Shown: positions 12,644-64,000, counted from the first letter of the stretch. The stretch is DNA of 64,000 nt from an uncultured Verrucomicrobia subdivision 3 bacterium (GCA_903944085.1 CAJAQO010000321.1:8340-72339), one strand, 5' to 3'. Notes: generated from the sequence alone by a model not told the origin. Numbers and translations are program-made.

Positions 12644-12703
12644 CCGGAGCACCTAGGCACAGCATGAAAATTCCGATTCCACCGCTGCAAACTTCTGAGG
12701 GTA

Positions 12704-12815
12704 GTGATCAGTTATCAGTGAACAGTGATCAGTTATCAGTGGTCAGTGATCAAATTACCCCCCACGCAGCGGACCAGCGACTGATTACTGATCACTGTTC
12801 ACTGATTACTGTCAC
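12704..12815. repeat. large hairpin built from 7-nt tandem units
   Basis: The left arm is seven GTGATCA-like units (12704-12752). The right arm (12782-12815) is five units of the reverse complement (tgattac tgatcac tgttcac tgattac tgtcac). The loop is about 29 nt. Confidence 0.75.
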
Positions 12816-12910: not shown

Positions 12911-13120
12911 AATCTGGACGCCCAAATGGGGGTCATGGATGCCCAAACGCGGGTCGTGGATGCCCAGATGGGGATGGTGGACGGTCAAACGCGGGTGGTG
13001 GACGCCTAAACGTGGGTCGTGGACGGCCAGATGGGGGTCATGGATGCCCAGATGCCGGTCGTGGACGGTCAAACGTGGGTCATGGACGCCCAGATGCGGG
13101 TGGTGGACGGCCAAATGTCC
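12911..13120. repeat. 21-bp minisatellite, about 10 units, consensus GTCRTGGAYGCCCARAYGNGG
   Basis: The units were counted directly. The region is open in several frames on both strands, which is typical of a stop-free repeat rather than a gene. Confidence 0.8.
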
Positions 13121-57958: not shown

Positions 57959-58636
57959 ATGGAAAATCATTTTGAAATGGGTCTCGACGCGCTGCGGCAA
58001 AAGATTTTGCTGATGGCCAGCCGCGCCGAGACCGCCGTCAACGAGTCCGTGCAGGCGCTCGTCCAGCGCGATTACGATCTCGCCCTGCGCGTGCGCGAGG
58101 ATGACAACCTCATTGACCAGTTCGAGGTGGAGATTGATGAGATGGCCATTGTGCTGCTGACGAAAGCGCCGCTGGCCAGCAATCTCCGGCTCGTGACCGT
58201 GGCGATGAAAGTTTCGCAGAACCTCGAACGCATCGGCGACGAGGCCACCAAGATTGCCAAACGCGCCCGCGACCTGGCGCAGGAGCCGCCGGTGAAAATC
58301 AATCTGGATGTCAACCGCATGGCCGGTCTTTCCCTCGCGATGGTCAAGGAAGCGCTCGACGCGTTTGTCCACCGCGATTCCGCCGCCGCCCGCGCGCTCA
58401 TTCCGCGCGACAAGGAAGTGGACGCGCTCAACAAGGAAATCCACCAGCAGCTCGCGCAGCACATGATGGCCAACCCCGACACCATCGCCCGCTGTCTGCA
58501 TTGGATCGTTGCCAGCAAAAGCCTCGAACGCATCGCCGACCACGCGAAGAACATCGCCGAGGAAGTGGTCTTTCTCTGCGAGGCGCAGGACATCCGGCAC
58601 CCGGCGGCCAAGGCCGCCGGCAGCGCCCCCGGCTGA
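57959..58636 (+). CDS. phoU: phosphate signalling complex protein PhoU
   Basis: 225 aa with duplicated PhoU helices (E.IGD motifs: LERIGDEATKIA and LERIADHAKNIAE). Confidence 0.9.
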   Translation: MENHFEMGLDALRQKILLMASRAETAVNESVQALVQRDYDLALRVREDDNLIDQFEVEIDEMAIVLLTKAPLASNLRLVTVAMKVSQNLERIGDEATKIAKRARDLAQEPPVKINLDVNRMAGLSLAMVKEALDAFVHRDSAAARALIPRDKEVDALNKEIHQQLAQHMMANPDTIARCLHWIVASKSLERIADHAKNIAEEVVFLCEAQDIRHPAAKAAGSAPG

Positions 58637-58666
58637 AACCGGTGCCGCCTTGGTTCCGAACCAATG

Positions 58667-58709
58667 AAAAACCCGCGCGGCTCCGGCCGCGCGGGCTGAT
58701 TTTTTTTTC
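58667..58709. terminator. bidirectional rho-independent terminator
   Basis: aaaaa-CCCGCGCGGC-tccg-GCCGCGCGGG-ctga-ttttttttt, between convergent phoU and 58718..59674. Confidence 0.8.
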
Positions 58710-58717
58710 GCAGGTGG

Positions 58718-59674
58718 TTACGGCACTCCGACGCTGACCGCATCGCATGGCTGGCTTTCGCCCGTCGCATTGCGGGCGGTGACTGCCACGTTCACGTTCG
58801 CACCCGCCGGCAGGCTGTCGAAAGTGGCTTCCGCATCCTGGGTCAACTGCTCCGCCAGTTCCGTGCCATCCGCCGCGTTCGTCACCGTGAAGCGGTAGCC
58901 GGACGCGCGACGCGCGTCGTCGCAATGCACGAACAAGCTGCCCGAACCGGCAGGGCCCGGTATGACCACGAGATTTTGCGGCACATCCGGCGTGGAGGGA
59001 TGACCCGGCAGATCAAAGCCAAACGCCAGCCAGCGCGGATCATTGTCGTCGAGCAGTTGGCCGAGTTCCGCCAGCAGGCCGGACGCCCGCGCCCGCCCGG
59101 CATCAATGCCGTCCTGCAAGGCCGATTGCGCGTTGCCCGCGTCCGTGTTGCTCTGGTTGCTGGCTTTTTGCGCCGTGACGATGACGCCCGACGCGGCCTG
59201 GCACGCGGCGGCGGTGCAGGCGATGCCGTTGATATTGGCGACTTCCTTTGCCGGATTGGCCGCATAATAAGCGCTCAACAGCAGCAGCAGCGGCTGCGGA
59301 TGCGCCGGCACCGCGAGCGAGCCGCCCGTGAAACCGGCGGCGTTCCACGCGCTGTTCCATTGCGTGCCCAGCACCGGCTTGAGCGCGCCGATGCACGTCA
59401 TCGCCAGCGCGCGACCGTTGCTCTCGGCGGTGCGCAGGTCGGCGGTCATGGCCGCCTTGTTCGCCTTGGCCCCGTTCCACAGCGACTTCAAGCCCGGCAC
59501 GGCGGGCGGCACGCCGCCGGGACCGGCGGGCACACCGATGAGCGCCGTCAAATCCGTGCGGATGGCCGGGCCGGTATTTTGTTTGAGGCCGATGGCCGCG
59601 CCGTATTTGTCCGCCCCGTCGGCGGCATCTTCCAGCAGTTGCACCAGAGGATCGTATGATTCGGGGACTTGCAT
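58718..59674 (-). CDS. hypothetical protein, helical N-terminus plus FN3-like C-terminal sandwich (paralog B)
   Basis: 318 aa with no signal peptide. It carries the GGVPPAVPGL motif, and its 5' UTR resembles that of paralog A. Confidence 0.6.
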   Translation of the reverse strand: MQVPESYDPLVQLLEDAADGADKYGAAIGLKQNTGPAIRTDLTALIGVPAGPGGVPPAVPGLKSLWNGAKANKAAMTADLRTAESNGRALAMTCIGALKPVLGTQWNSAWNAAGFTGGSLAVPAHPQPLLLLLSAYYAANPAKEVANINGIACTAAACQAASGVIVTAQKASNQSNTDAGNAQSALQDGIDAGRARASGLLAELGQLLDDNDPRWLAFGFDLPGHPSTPDVPQNLVVIPGPAGSGSLFVHCDDARRASGYRFTVTNAADGTELAEQLTQDAEATFDSLPAGANVNVAVTARNATGESQPCDAVSVGVP

Positions 59675-59768
59675 GATGTTTGTTCCTTTCTTTGGTTGAT
59701 TGTGTGAAAATTTTTATTCCTCTTGAAATCCGGCGGCAACGTAAAATTGGCGAACCTTATTACATTTC

Positions 59769-60284
59769 TTGCCAAAGCTCAAAATCGCCTGGCGGAAAAC
59801 AAGCTTGGTCAAAACGCTTTTTATTTCGTGGCCATTTTCTAAACTCAACGCATGGCGAAAAAAGTTGCTGCGAAAGAACCTGTTGCCGCTCCACATCAAA
59901 AACCCTCTGCCCTCGTGGATAAAGCAACTATCTGAAAAACATGCGGAGCTTGTTGAAAAGAAGATTGAAGCCACGAAAAATCATGAGATTTTTCCAACTA
60001 GCTTTGTAGTCGCTTCGCTCCACAGTTCGTTCAAATCGATCCTGAAGCCGCTGACATTCCTAATGTCTTTAACAATCCTGGCATTCATGCTTTATGACAG
60101 TTTTTTTCCAGAAGCCAAATTATCCAGTTTTTGGGTTTGGGTATTATTACTGCCATCGTTTATCATTCCATCGGTTGCGTTTTATTTACATTCACTGACC
60201 GTCAAGCTTGCCGAAGCAGCCATTGCCCGTCTCGAAAAACAAATTCGAGAAGCCCAGCGGAAGCAAGGCGAGGAGTCGGTTTGA
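59769..60284 (+). CDS. two-TM membrane protein with flanking helices (SLATT-like architecture, unverified)
   Basis: Lies in an AT-rich segment. The TM helices are LTFLMSLTILAFMLY and FWVWVLLLPSFIIPSVAFYL, and the C-terminal helix is KLAEAAIARLEKQIREAQRK. The start is unclear (TTG). Confidence 0.5.
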   Translation: MPKLKIAWRKTSLVKTLFISWPFSKLNAWRKKLLRKNLLPLHIKNPLPSWIKQLSEKHAELVEKKIEATKNHEIFPTSFVVASLHSSFKSILKPLTFLMSLTILAFMLYDSFFPEAKLSSFWVWVLLLPSFIIPSVAFYLHSLTVKLAEAAIARLEKQIREAQRKQGEESV

Positions 60285-60318
60285 CGAAATGCCGGATGGT
60301 TTGTAATCTCACCGAATT

Positions 60319-60853
60319 ATGCCAGAGCAAATCCTATTGTTTCGGGTGTTCGTGGGTGCGCCATCGGATGTGGACGAAGCCCACGTTGTGATTCGCGGAC
60401 AAATTGAGCAATGGAATCGTGACCACGGGCCGCTGGCGGGAGCACGAGTGGAATTCACGCACTGGCGCACGCACAGTCATCCCGCCGCCGGTGGCCGTCC
60501 GCAAGCACTTCTCAACAAGCAGGTGGTGGATCAATGCGACATCATGGTGGGCATTTTCAACGCGCGGTTTGGTTCGCCCACGGGCGTCGCGGATTCAGGC
60601 ACTGAGGAGGAAATCCGGCGCAGCATCAAGCATGGCAAGAAGGTGATGGTGTATTTCAACAACCAGCCAATCCCGAAACAGCGCAAGGCGCGAAATGAAT
60701 TTGCGCGAATTGAAAAGTTCAAGCAGCAAGCTGGGGAAAAACGCCATTTATCATACCTACACCGATATGCCGACGTTTGAAGCCGCGTTTCGGCAGCACT
60801 TGGCGGGCGTGATGAACGAATTGTTGGCAAAAACCAAATCTGGATTAAAATAA
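60319..60853 (+). pseudogene. DUF4062/TIR-like (Rossmann-like) domain protein, frameshifted at a G4A5 run
   Basis: FRVFVGAPSDVDEA ... CDIMVGIFNARFGSPTGVADSGTEEEIRRSIKHGKKVMVYF fits the DUF4062-type layout. The annotated frame stops at 60780, but the adjacent frame continues as GKNAIYHTYTDMPTFEAAFRQHLAGVMNELLAKTKSGLK* to 60853, 4 nt before the next gene. Confidence 0.55.
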
Positions 60854-60857
60854 AGCC

Positions 60858-61304
60858 ATGAGTGTGAAAAACGCATTGAATGTTTCCGGTGGAAACCTGA
60901 CCGGCGCAAACGTCCACGTTGGCGACCAGGTAACGAATGTGCGTGTGAGCAAAAGCAGCAAGCGCCCCGCCTCATACCCGGAAGGCTGCATCGGCGCGAA
61001 TCTCGCCAAGCGCAATTATGTGAAATATCTGGTGGAGCGTTACAACCATTACCGCGAAGCGGACGCCCGTTTTGGACGCAGCACGCATTTTCATTATTCG
61101 GTGCTTTTCAAAAACATTGAATCCGCATTCAAAGCGCCGACTTATTTCATACCCGAACCCCGGTTTCCAGAGTTGGTTGATTATTTACACGACCGAATCA
61201 ACAACACGATTCTTGGCCGGGTGAACGGCAAGCGCGGCATTCCCAATTACGAGTCCTTCGACGAATATGTGATGGAACACATGGGCGCGGCGGTGGCGGG
61301 CTAA
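60858..61304 (+). CDS. hypothetical protein
   Basis: 148 aa, tightly spaced after the previous gene. I recognise no family. Confidence 0.5.
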   Translation: MSVKNALNVSGGNLTGANVHVGDQVTNVRVSKSSKRPASYPEGCIGANLAKRNYVKYLVERYNHYREADARFGRSTHFHYSVLFKNIESAFKAPTYFIPEPRFPELVDYLHDRINNTILGRVNGKRGIPNYESFDEYVMEHMGAAVAG

Positions 61305-61377
61305 TTAGCCTGAATGTTCTGCTTCAACCCGATCTTCTCCCCAAGGAGATGTATTTTAGCGAGCAACGGGAATTGAC

Positions 61378-61827
61378 ATGAATCTGTCCGAATTGCACCA
61401 GCGGCTCTCGAAAAAGCCTACCTATCGCAAGGCTTACGACGCCATCGGCGAAGTGGTGTTGATCGGCGCGGCGGTGCGGAAGTTGCGCGAAGATTCGGCA
61501 ATGACGCAGCAGGAACTGGCGGACAAACTCGAAATTTCGCAGTTCTATCTTTCCCGTCTCGCAACCGGCAGCGGCAGGGTTGCGCCTTATGTCGTTTCGG
61601 CGGTGGTCTGTCATTTTGAAGAAGAATTGCGCGGACTTGGAATCAATGTCGAGCCGTGGCTGGCCACAACGCCTAAAACCGCGCCGGCAGAAAAACCTTT
61701 GTCGCAACAACGGCCTATAGCGCTTGAAAACGTGTCGCGCACTCGTCGCCCGGCTGCTACCGAGGAATTGGCGGAAGGAGTTTTGCATGACAGGCCAGTG
61801 CCTTACAAAGTTGGGAAACCTCATTGA
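61378..61827 (+). CDS. XRE-family HTH transcriptional regulator
   Basis: VRKLREDSAMTQQELADKLEISQFYLSRLATG is a Cro/C1-type HTH. Confidence 0.7.
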   Translation: MNLSELHQRLSKKPTYRKAYDAIGEVVLIGAAVRKLREDSAMTQQELADKLEISQFYLSRLATGSGRVAPYVVSAVVCHFEEELRGLGINVEPWLATTPKTAPAEKPLSQQRPIALENVSRTRRPAATEELAEGVLHDRPVPYKVGKPH

Positions 61828-62002
61828 GGCTTTCTGCGTGCCGTGGTGACTTGGACTTGATTTGCATGACCACCCTCACCCCGGCCTTCTTCCCAAGGAG
61901 AAGGAGCCACGCGCGCCGCGTCTTTGGCCAAACCAGCGGCGGGATTGGTTGGATGGTTTTTGTGAAAAATCTGGTTAAATTGCTAATTTTGAATGGTTAA
62001 GA

Positions 62003-62374
62003 GGCGTTCGGGTGGGTTTGGGACGGTCTAAAAATTGCCGTCGAACGGTTCGACGGGTTCTAAAAAGCCTTTTTAGGAGGCGTCGAACGGTTCGGGTTCA
62101 CCTAAAAGCTCCTTGAAATAGAGGTCGGACGGCCCGACCGCTCCTAAAACGGCGTTCAAACTGGCGTCGAACCGTCCGGGCTGGGCTAAGACGCCGTTTC
62201 AGCAGGCAGCGAACGGTTCGACCTCATCCAAAAGCTCTTTGAAACTGCCGGCGAACGGTTCGACCGCGCTCAAAACGGCGTTCGAGCCGGCACCGAACAG
62301 CTCGACCGGATCTTAAAACCCTTTTTGAGAGGCGTCGCACGGCTCGGCGGACGTTTTAAGGTCTTTGCTGATGG
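62003..62374. repeat. degenerate ~42-nt tandem array (array 2), nine units
   Basis: The units start near 62003, 62040, 62080, 62124, 62164, 62209, 62251, 62293 and 62332. The consensus is GCGTCGAACGGTTCGAC-N5-CTAAAA-N-TTT... The core is the palindrome GTCGAACGGTTCGAC. Confidence 0.8.
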
Positions 62375-62465
62375 ACCCCGGCGGCGGGGCAAGGCGCGGA
62401 CGCCGCGCCGCCGGGAAATTGATTTTTCGTGCGCGGCGCGGCTTTTTGGGTAAAACTTTGCCCGC

Positions 62466-63095
62466 ATGTTTTCCATTTCGCAACTGTTCAGCAAAGGCGA
62501 CCGGTTTCAGGAACTGCTCGAAGCCGCCGCCGCCGAATCCCACGAAAGCGTCCGGCTCGTCATCGAGCTGATGAAGTCGCCGCGCAATTCCCAGAGCTTC
62601 GATGACCTCATTCTCGCGCGCCGCAAGGAAAAGAAAATCTCCGGGCAGATCAGCAACGAACTGGTGAAAACCTTCATCACCGGCCTGGACCGCGAGGACA
62701 TCGAGACGCTGGCACGGTCGCTGTTCCGCATCCCCAAGGCCGCCGAAAAACTGGCCGAGCGGCTGGTGATGGCCGGGGCGCATCTCGACGGCATGGATTT
62801 TTCCAAGCAGGCCGACATGATGAACAAGGCCACCGACGCCGTGCATGAAATGGTCAAGCAGTTGCGCCACCTGGAGGACATGGAAAAGCTGAAAACCTAT
62901 AACGACCGCCTCCAGCTCGTCGAAGTCGAGGCGGACAAATACATGAACGAACTGCTGCGCGATCTTTACGGCGGCAAATACGACGCCATCCGCGCCATCG
63001 TCGTGCGCGATGTTTATGAGCTGATGGAAAAGGTGGTGGACCGCTGCCACGACACCGGCAACGTGGTCATGCACATCGTGCTGAAAAACTCTTGA
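62466..63095 (+). CDS. DUF47-family (PhoU-like) phosphate-transport accessory protein
   Basis: 209 aa with a DUF47 helical pattern (…REDIE.LA..L..I.…VEVEADKYMNELLRDLY…VYELMEKVVDRCHD). It lies upstream of a PiT transporter, which is the common arrangement. Confidence 0.8.
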   Translation: MFSISQLFSKGDRFQELLEAAAAESHESVRLVIELMKSPRNSQSFDDLILARRKEKKISGQISNELVKTFITGLDREDIETLARSLFRIPKAAEKLAERLVMAGAHLDGMDFSKQADMMNKATDAVHEMVKQLRHLEDMEKLKTYNDRLQLVEVEADKYMNELLRDLYGGKYDAIRAIVVRDVYELMEKVVDRCHDTGNVVMHIVLKNS

Positions 63096-63098
63096 AAT

Positions 63099-63555
63099 GC
63101 GGAGTGCGGAATTCGGAGTGCGGAGTCACTTCGCCGAGCCACCTATGAACAACGAAAAATTGAAGGAGCGCACGAAGCGGTTTGCCTTGGAAATTGTCAA
63201 GCTGGTTGAGGCTTTGCCTCTGGGGAAAACGTGTGACGTTCTAGGGCGGCAACGGCTGCGTTCCGGCACTTCCGTCGGGGCCAATTACCGCGCCGCGTGC
63301 CGCGCCAAATCGCCCGCCGATTTTATTTTCAAAATGGGAATTGTGGAAGAAGAAGCCGATGAATCGAGCTTTTGGATTGAACTGCTGGTCGAGAGCGGAA
63401 AATTAAACCCCGACCAGGCCGCTGCCCTGCTCAAGGAGTGCAACGAACTTGTCGCCATCGTTGTCGCTTCCATCCGAACTGCAAAAAAGAACCGAGCGAC
63501 AGACTCGGCGACGTCGGCCGCTGCCACTCCGCATTCCGCACTCCGCACTCCGCAC
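63099..63555. other. IVS-like insertion: four-helix-bundle ORF bracketed by long inverted repeats of GCGGAGT units
   Basis: The left arm is GCGGAGTGCGGAATTCGGAGTGCGGAGT (63099-63126). The right arm is ACTCCGCATTCCGCACTCCGCACTCCGCAC (63526-63555). Runs of 12-13 bp can pair in more than one register. Confidence 0.7.
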
Positions 63556-63558
63556 TGA
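63145..63558 (+). CDS. four-helix-bundle protein (23S rRNA intervening-sequence protein family)
   Basis: ERTKRFALEIVKLVEALP...GRQRLRSGTSVGANYRAACRAKS.ADFI.KMGIVEEEADES.FW.ELL is the signature. The ATG at 63145 is preferred over 63097, which lies in the repeat arm. Confidence 0.8.
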   Translation: MNNEKLKERTKRFALEIVKLVEALPLGKTCDVLGRQRLRSGTSVGANYRAACRAKSPADFIFKMGIVEEEADESSFWIELLVESGKLNPDQAAALLKECNELVAIVVASIRTAKKNRATDSATSAAATPHSALRTPH

Positions 63559-63560
63559 AT

Positions 63561-64000
63561 ATGTTCCTGATCCTGCTCGTCATTTTCATCGCGCTGGTGT
63601 TCACCTACATCAACGGCTTTCACGACACGGCCAATTCCATCGCCACGGTCGTCTCAACGAAAGTGCTCACGCCGCGCCAGGCGGTTTTGCTGGCGGCGTT
63701 CACCAACCTCATCGGCGCCTTTTTCGGCACCGCTGTCGCCGCGACGATTGCCTCCGGCCTCGTGGACGCGCAGGTGGCGACCATGCCGGTGCTGTGTTGT
63801 GCGTTGCTGGCCGCCATCGTTTGGAGCCTGCTGACATGGTGGTTCGGACTGCCGTCCAGTTCGTCGCACGCGCTCGTCGGCGGGCTGTGCGGCGCGGTGC
63901 TGGCGGCTTCGGGCAAATGGTCGTCAATTATCTGGTCAATCCCTGATCAGGAACATTGGTGGAAGAGCAAAGGGATTCTTTGGAAAGTCATCGTGCCGAT
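63561..64000 (+). CDS. inorganic phosphate transporter, PiT family (5' part; runs off the window)
   Basis: My own translation is MFLILLVIFIALVFTYINGFHDTANSIATVVSTKVLTPRQA...SSSHALVGGL..., containing the PHO4 signature GFHDTANSIAT. It is absent from the ORF track because no stop falls in the window. Confidence 0.85.
   Translation, partial: MFLILLVIFIALVFTYINGFHDTANSIATVVSTKVLTPRQAVLLAAFTNLIGAFFGTAVAATIASGLVDAQVATMPVLCCALLAAIVWSLLTWWFGLPSSSSHALVGGLCGAVLAASGKWSSIIWSIPDQEHWWKSKGILWKVIVP

Follow-up and report, generated by a model that had tools for sequence, protein, structure and literature searches.

The window analysed here, a 64,000-nt stretch of DNA from an uncultured Verrucomicrobia subdivision 3 bacterium, carries a tandem-repeat array with pstSCAB-phoU upstream and genes for a DUF47 protein (PhoU_div), a 23S-IVP protein and a PiT transporter downstream. 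Junction alignment with related species places the array at the right end of a 3.8-kb block inserted in the 3′ end of phoU (58601-62415), where GACATCCGGCAC abuts CCGGCGGCC on the left and GCCGCCGGG abuts AAATTGATTTTTCGTGCGCGGC on the right. In order, the block comprises hyp318 (58718-59674, minus strand), the doubtful ORF orf171, a DUF4062 protein gene, hyp148, an XRE gene (61378-61827), a high-copy repeat, the array and a GC-rich hairpin. The insertion replaces the last phoU codons, and PhoU gains a new C-terminal tail.

For comparison, 20 related species were used, all Verrucomicrobia subdivision 3/Limisphaerales MAGs with a DUF47 protein 67-90% identical to that of the window. The array is absent at the phoU-DUF47 locus in 20 out of 20, and in most of them DUF47 starts ∼55 nt after phoU. 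This spacer is itself an insertion hotspot in the lineage (loci L016-L035 compared), with inserts of 0.3-4.4 kb in L017, L022, L023, L033, L034 and L035; those of L017, L022, L033 and L034 hold ordinary large Pho-type genes, including a response-regulator-like start in L034, and no arrays. GC-rich CCGGCGG...CCGCCGG hairpins are found at both junctions of the window insertion (58601-58620 and 62377-62415), and the CCGGCGG motif is also present 3′ of the tail in other arrays. A mobile island with hairpin ends was considered and rejected, as no recombinase is present and one homologous locus (L157) has no left-end hairpin.

Two other components of the block were characterized. The DUF4062 protein (60319-60780, 153 aa) matches the PADLOC candidate defence protein PDC-S60 (E = 3.5e-26) over the N-terminal 142 positions of a 906-position profile. 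Judged from this match, it may be either a piece of PDC-S60 or a small version that stands alone, with hyp148 and XRE as neighbours. Apart from this protein, PADLOC returned in the window only weak matches of HTH models to the XRE protein. The very-high-copy short repeat CCCTCACCCCGGCC...GGAGAAGGAG...AAACCAGCGGCGGGATTG (61855-61947), just upstream of the array's leader, reaches a depth of 60-160x in peat metagenomes, versus 5-15x for its flanks. Similar elements occur near one homologous array (L164) and in the phoU-DUF47 spacers of L035 and L023; this repeat is separate from the array family.

The array consists of eight 42-nt units (62034-62369, plus strand), with 15-nt core palindromes (P1) and CTAAAA boxes. 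A repeat search recovered seven copies with start-to-start spacings of 42,42,42,42,42,42, and once the last unit is counted there are eight cores, at 62040, 62082, 62124, 62166, 62208, 62250, 62292 and 62334. The sequence-only reading of this DNA had described nine units of 39-45 nt; the array exists as claimed, but unit length is a constant 42 nt throughout and the number is eight. The supposed ninth unit is a degenerate leader unit that has CTAAAA at 62028 and lacks the core.

In every unit the GC-rich palindrome GTCGAACgGTTCGAC alternates with the A/T-rich palindrome CTAAAAAGcCTTTTTAG, 21 nt apart. P1 is GTCGAACnGTTCGAC, with arms of 7+1+7, and the second palindrome, P2, is CTAAAAAGnCTTTTTAG, or written by its arms CTAAAAAG-C-CTTTTTAG (8+1+8), the two centres being 21 bp apart; the CTAAAA box is the left arm of P2 and lies 21 nt from each core centre. 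Because P1 and P2 alternate within the units, the array is nearly the same on both strands: as a whole it almost equals its reverse complement, and a dyad recurs at 21-nt intervals (inverted repeats I1-I5). The tandem arrangement of palindromic cores and CTAAAA boxes, as originally proposed, was borne out by the 42-nt period and by the enrichment of the core, since GTCGAACGGTTCGAC at ≤3 mismatches has 14 matches in the 64-kb window versus 2.9 expected, a count reached in 0 of 100 shuffles, and all except three of these matches fall inside the array. A second hairpin within some units (CTAAAAAGCCTTTTTAG at 62060-62076) and pairing between adjacent units, seen as inter-unit inverted repeats, are likewise present.

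The units are strongly diverged, being 61-81% alike, and it is because of this that TRF at a minimum score of 30 did not detect the array. Of the eight P1 cores a single one matches the consensus perfectly, and several have decayed badly; the P1 centre base switches between C and G, and conservation is consistently higher in left arms than in right ones. The A4-5 tracts are conserved in phase; the AACSGTT loop and the CUAAAA box are conserved too. A CRISPR array, already discounted in the first reading, was rejected here too: near-identical repeats with unique spacers are not found, the entire 42-nt unit repeats at 61-81%, and the would-be spacers are homologous to one another. The reported sequence GTCGGACGGCCCGAC was located at 62124-62138. 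The altered core of unit 4 had been taken as a double, pairing-preserving substitution, which holds only in part: the left-arm A>G is lineage-specific, whereas the right-arm CC is ancestral, as the orthologous units in L092, L157 and L159 carry ...AACGGCCCGAC. The pair adjoining the left-arm change remains A.C.

Conserved modules bracket the units. The leader (TAAATTGCTAATTTTGAATGGTTAAGAGGCGTTC...GGACGGTCTAAAA, 61976-62033, plus strand) marks the start of homology with other arrays and is supported by alignments of the window with L092, L109, L159, L157, L081 and L164. It consists of two degenerate (decayed) units, is kept 5′ of every family member, and its left edge coincides with loose ends of peat-metagenome contigs at 61975/61976. 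The tail, delimited by right-flank comparison (62349-62376, plus strand), is a terminal palindrome GGACGTTTTAAGGTC plus TTTGCTGATGGAC and corresponds to GGACTTTTTAAGGTCC-TTGCGGACGGCCACC in L157, L159, L081 and L130/L164. It is followed by the GC-rich hairpin CCCGGCGGCGGGGC-N11-GCCGCGCCGCCGGG (62377-62415, plus strand), which forms the right end of the inserted block and has 14-nt arms, 93% complementary, with a T-run on its 3′ side.

Homologues were sought by a two-core pattern scan of metagenome contigs, which gave at least 120 stretches, and further homologue contigs were reached via spurious ORFs from the protein search described below. Among the matches listed and the ORF-derived contigs, homologous arrays are found in L092/L109, L159-L163, L157/L158, L081 and L130/L164-L167, where L164 to L167 represent the full version of the L130 array. 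Related arrays thus do exist elsewhere, in other genomes, contrary to one of the outcomes under which the sequence-only reading would have failed; they have the same leader (TAAAT(T/A)GCTnATTTTGAATGGyTAAGAGsCGTTC...GGACGGCCTAAAA), period and tail (GGACTTTTTAAGGTCC-TTGCGGAcGGCCACC). In all arrays measured the spacing is 42 nt, with a single exception of 41 nt in L159. The arrays of the window, L092, L159 and L157 match one another unit for unit at 81-88% identity: each has eight distinct units, in one shared order, and both the block ends and the unit order are identical in these four different flanking contexts. The L157 array is split by an IS256-family element (Transposase_mut; L157 2315-3574, also in L158), which lies in the A-rich box and is flanked by a target duplication of 8 bp, CTAAAAGC.

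A second group comprises L081 and L164, whose arrays precede metallophosphoesterase genes that are orthologous to each other (87% amino-acid identity). At this same locus the array has 3 units in L081 and 8 in L164, and it is missing from the metallophosphoesterase relatives L168 and L169. The array therefore varies between related genomes both in presence and in copy number. The hosts are Limisphaerales/Verrucomicrobia subdivision 3 genomes from lakes, peat and permafrost, with at least two kinds of locus occupied. A unit HMM run over 1.19 Mb of sequence found no further copy, and so the family is low copy; ∼240 kb from the loci of the 20 related species contained no array and the 64-kb window contained one.

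A blastn search of plasmids and phages gave no match to the array, and the two-core pattern in IMG/VR yielded 8 matches, all to unrelated coding or simple repeats. The 42- and 21-nt repeats of L138 and L150 have a similar core word; they also have open frames and no CTAAAA box, and from these features we judged them to be unrelated coding repeats. Same-species contigs (L001-L007) were 99.7-100% identical and for that reason uninformative. A second tandem array in the window, at 12915-13117, the "array 1" of the sequence-only reading, has about 9.7 copies of the 21-nt unit TGGACGCCCAAATGCGGGTCG and no sequence similarity to the 42-nt array; it is preceded (flanks 12703-12815) by heptamer runs of AGTGATC and the inverse ACTGATC.

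The gene hyp318 is the only block gene of the window with a homologue near other arrays. Together with ∼115 nt of upstream region it forms a module (58718-59790, minus strand), defined by tblastx and sequence comparison, which likewise precedes the array in L157 (8000-9102) and L092 (5480-5620). The window and L157 copies share 87% amino-acid identity, and the ∼115-nt upstream region is nearly identical across the three genomes, with conservation ending at an imperfect palindrome, TTGGCAAGAAATGTAATAAGGTTCGCCAA. The cargo between hyp318 and the array differs: the DUF4062 protein, hyp148 and XRE in the window, NosD-like, collagen-like and DsbA-like proteins in L092, and a PKD/Lcl_C protein in L157. 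Genes outside the hyp318-cargo-array block also differ among the three genomes, and no recombinase is present. The AlphaFold model of hyp318 is poor (pLDDT 49) apart from a C-terminal FN3-like domain, with a helical N-terminal part, and a search of IMG/VR with hyp318 gave no match.

The linked hyp318 gene provides a yardstick for the divergence of the array. Between the window and L157 the array is 87.9% identical without gaps, while the identity of hyp318 is 85.7% for fourfold-degenerate sites and 81% for third codon positions. As judged from these alignments, the array diverges at about the neutral rate and is under weak constraint. Its linkers have a mean pairwise divergence of 0.200, its cores one of 0.147 and its leader the lowest, 0.111. 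The orthologue alignments contain about 4 indel events versus roughly 150 substitutions, and this scarcity of indels, along with the nearly invariant 42-nt spacing, suggests some constraint on spacing beyond neutral decay.

The palindromy of the units is real: paired cells amount to 72.7-75.6%, a share that drops to 23-49% if the partners are displaced by 1 to 3 columns. In the set of four orthologous arrays, paired cells were at 72.7% versus 72.1% in shuffled data (85 of 500 shuffles were as high) and double-sided changes numbered 2 versus 1.5 expected, so that no selection for pairing is seen in their recent evolution. Among paralogous units the P2 apex pair does covary (A-T 13, C-G 12, G-C 5), but this reflects three unit types and hence no more than two events. 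Apparent compensatory changes can also arise without selection, through template switching at quasi-palindromes (PMC8794818, PMC5453318).

Taken together, these results lead us to favour, with a probability of roughly one half, the reading that the array belongs to a new family of low-copy, non-coding, dyad-symmetric intergenic tandem-repeat elements in Limisphaerales (Verrucomicrobiota). A 42-bp P1+P2 unit would have been amplified to about eight copies, which then diverged by substitution. Any effect of the array would be structural and exerted in cis, and the family would lack a dedicated trans-acting partner. The array is placed between co-directional genes and, if read through, it would fold into consecutive stem-loops, either closing the upstream transcript at its 3′ end or opening the downstream transcript at its 5′ end. 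By analogy with what has been proposed for REP/BIME and BOX elements, such stem-loops might act in cis by mRNA stabilization, partial termination or insulation. The palindromes themselves may persist partly through template switching at quasi-palindromes, a mutational process, instead of selection. On present evidence the array looks like an ordinary, slowly decaying intergenic repeat.

Several observations fit this reading less comfortably. The spacing seems too well kept for units that differ by 20-40%, with one departure from 42 nt (the 41 nt of L159), and four flanking contexts agree in the block ends and in how the eight distinct units are ordered. The leader and cores evolve slightly more slowly than the linkers, the apex pair of P2 covaries, and the copy number is low, unlike that of typical selfish interspersed repeats.

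In layout the closest known element is BOX, boxA-(boxB)n-boxC (PMC3049150). Both BOX and the array family have conserved end modules around variable tandem internal modules, of about 45 nt in BOX and of 42 nt, in 3 or 8 copies, here; six arrays have the leader and tail in conserved form. Both also have predicted stem-loops, spurious short ORFs and a tendency to cluster with small repeats and IS elements. The array lies in intergenic DNA rich in repeats, beside a high-copy one, and BOX, RUP and SPRITE elements show comparable clustering (PMC3049150). By contrast, BOX occurs in over 100 copies per genome and is regarded as MITE-like with terminal inverted repeats. The array family is low copy, and its module ends have no clear terminal inverted repeats or target duplication in a comparison that lacked an exactly matching empty site. 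Its units are doubly palindromic and strongly diverged among themselves, unlike those of BOX. The likeness is one of layout, and sequence kinship is unlikely because the phylum is different.

REP/BIME elements (PMC3733652) resemble the array as short extragenic palindromes 3′ of genes, sometimes in regular clusters, for which a role as RNA stem-loops or as elements of DNA structure has been proposed. REPs, though, are dispersed in tens to thousands of copies, bear a GTAG or CGTC tag that is unpaired, and in many cases are linked to RAYT transposases (PMC3733652). In the array GTAG is absent, CGTC lies within the paired stem and single units are not dispersed in the window; no RAYT (Y1_Tnp domain) was found near any array.

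The main alternative at the DNA level is a phased array of double-stranded protein-binding sites, like a centromere or an operator cluster of the F sopC type, with putative protein dimers on P1; we hold this to be possible but unlikely. Sites spaced 42 bp apart, that is four helical turns, would all lie on the same helix face, and the A-tracts between P1 sites would aid wrapping or bending of the DNA. The period (4.0 turns) and the 21-bp offset between palindromes (2.0 turns) speak for this design, as do the spacing kept in six arrays, the phased A4-5 tracts and palindromes that run continuously through their centres, which an RNA hairpin does not need. In unit design sopC of the F plasmid is the closest known system: it is built of 12 direct repeats, 43 bp long, every one of which contains an inverted repeat with arms of about 7 bp (PMC3177203), and the array too is, by sequence, a set of tandem repeats each with an inverted-repeat site. 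The sopC units are nearly identical and adjoin sopA and sopB, whereas those of the array are 61-81% alike, with degraded cores, and chromosomal. Pfam searches near the arrays of the window, L081, L092, L130, L157, L159 and L164, along with tables of called genes, showed no parA/parB (sopA/sopB), and the different contexts have no ParA/ParB, Rep or other DNA-binding gene in common. Further points against such sites are the single perfect core out of eight, the better conservation of left than right arms, which is unexpected for a symmetric dimer site, the near-neutral divergence, the persistence of an IS-split array and the lack of similar sequences in plasmid and phage collections.

The array might also encode a stand-alone ncRNA of about 400 nt with repeated stem-loop modules, transcribed from the leader to the hairpin after the tail, which could titrate an RNA-binding protein as a sponge in the manner of CsrB/RsmZ. 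The stem-loop potential predicted by folding is real, with z-scores of −3.1 and −4.0 on the two strands, about equal. A leader and tail that look non-repetitive flank the units in every context, the window has a GC-rich hairpin and then a T-run after the tail, and the AACSGTT loop and the CUAAAA box are conserved. Exact matches to the array were found in unstranded metatranscriptome contigs (Logan) from four runs, one fragment spanning the array into the start of DUF47. These runs, though, were retrieved with the array as query; four runs retrieved via pst-phoU, with very sparse coverage, contained no array fragment. Rfam at E up to 10 gave nothing on the array and three weak matches outside it, and a search for sigma-70-like promoters found none. 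P1 mismatches (G.T 19 versus A.C 26) favour neither strand, compensatory change is not in excess among the four orthologues, divergence is near neutral and the leader itself is made of decayed units. The structured multi-hairpin ncRNA put forward by the sequence-only reading is thus matched by the folding scores but not by an Rfam hit, an excess of compensatory change or a strand preference, and we consider it an unlikely explanation.

In ToxI-like type III TA systems the antitoxin RNA is a series of direct repeats, each about 36-45 nt long and bearing an A-rich motif, and a hairpin comes after them. Compared by description, the array is similar in repeat length, A-rich motif and following hairpin; to our knowledge ToxI units are not palindromic, unlike those of the array. 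No ToxN-, AbiQ- or CptN-like toxin gene follows the array, its place being taken by DUF47/PhoU_div, metallophosphoesterase or other genes. The array has the complete set of defining features of none of these systems, whether BOX, sopC, REP/BIME, CRISPR or type III TA repeats.

A further proposal is that the array is a selected cis-element, either a phased nucleoprotein array bound by a putative Limisphaerales protein or a conserved boundary or insulator of a variable-gene hotspot; we regard a selected role of either form as rather improbable. In three genomes the same two modules, hyp318 with its promoter and the array, bracket different cargo at different chromosomal places: a candidate defence gene plus XRE in the window, and genes for surface proteins in the others. 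This linkage could reflect either an ancestral neighbourhood prone to insertions or a block anchored by two conserved modules. If the four-turn spacing or the hyp318-cargo-array layout were selected, the family would point to a new DNA-organizing or insulating element from an uncultured lineage.

The array is non-coding. Stops interrupt all six frames in the window array and in five related arrays, some of them common to several species, as the first reading had surmised in finding no intact gene. The 14-aa pseudo-repeat that it described on the minus strand was confirmed, with TAA/TGA/TAA/TAG as its stops. It is very doubtful that the array is the remnant of a gene with 14-residue repeats on this strand (...KELLxEVEPFDAS...), inactivated by stops. 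The 42-nt unit does equal 14 codons with the phase held throughout, the pseudo-peptides are similar between arrays, and the minus-strand frame of L092 has a single internal stop. Yet both strands yield similar 14-residue pseudo-peptides because the DNA is palindromic, and are equally protein-like; the C/G flip at the P1 centre would swap Pro and Arg if it were coding, and variable columns among orthologues are distributed by codon phase as 33/38/33 (p=0.79), with no 3-nt periodicity. A decayed repeat-protein gene, one of the roles first suggested, is not supported, given these stops, the missing codon periodicity and the lack of any credible protein relative.

Protein searches agree with this. 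The pseudo-peptide profile matched just two short ORFs (71 and 37 aa) in 5.8 billion protein clusters, both of them located on homologous arrays, and a profile of the Arg-rich "RRTVR" frame gave no match. HMMER with the longest stop-free stretch against 1.84 billion representatives returned one 4704-aa Lys-rich protein with long repeats, which was rejected as a relative: it has 29% identity over 31 residues only, and its E-value is inflated by its many near-identical repeats. The database proteins P0001 (71 aa) and P0002 (37 aa) are ORFs across arrays L159-L163 and L157/L158, and are almost certainly annotation artefacts.

The last suggestion, that the array serves as operator for the XRE-family regulator next to it or titrates this protein, is highly improbable. 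The XRE gene does end 150-200 nt upstream and the palindromes are of a size typical of helix-turn-helix dimers, but homologous arrays adjoin unrelated genes with no XRE homologue and the XRE promoter region is without a P1-like site.

The family adds a defined repeat type (leader, 42-bp doubly palindromic units and tail) to the poorly charted repeats of Verrucomicrobiota. For annotators it provides a reason against calling ORFs across such arrays, two database "hypothetical proteins" being array artefacts.

Downstream of the array, the 23S-rRNA-IVP (four-helix-bundle) gene at 63097-63558 lies between inverted heptamer runs, TGCGGAG and CACTCCG (63098-63126 and 63525-63556). Most related species are without this gene between DUF47 and PiT, and contigs from several runs join 63095 to 63561, or about 63126 to 63528, skipping it; for these reasons the IVP gene behaves like an insertion cassette.
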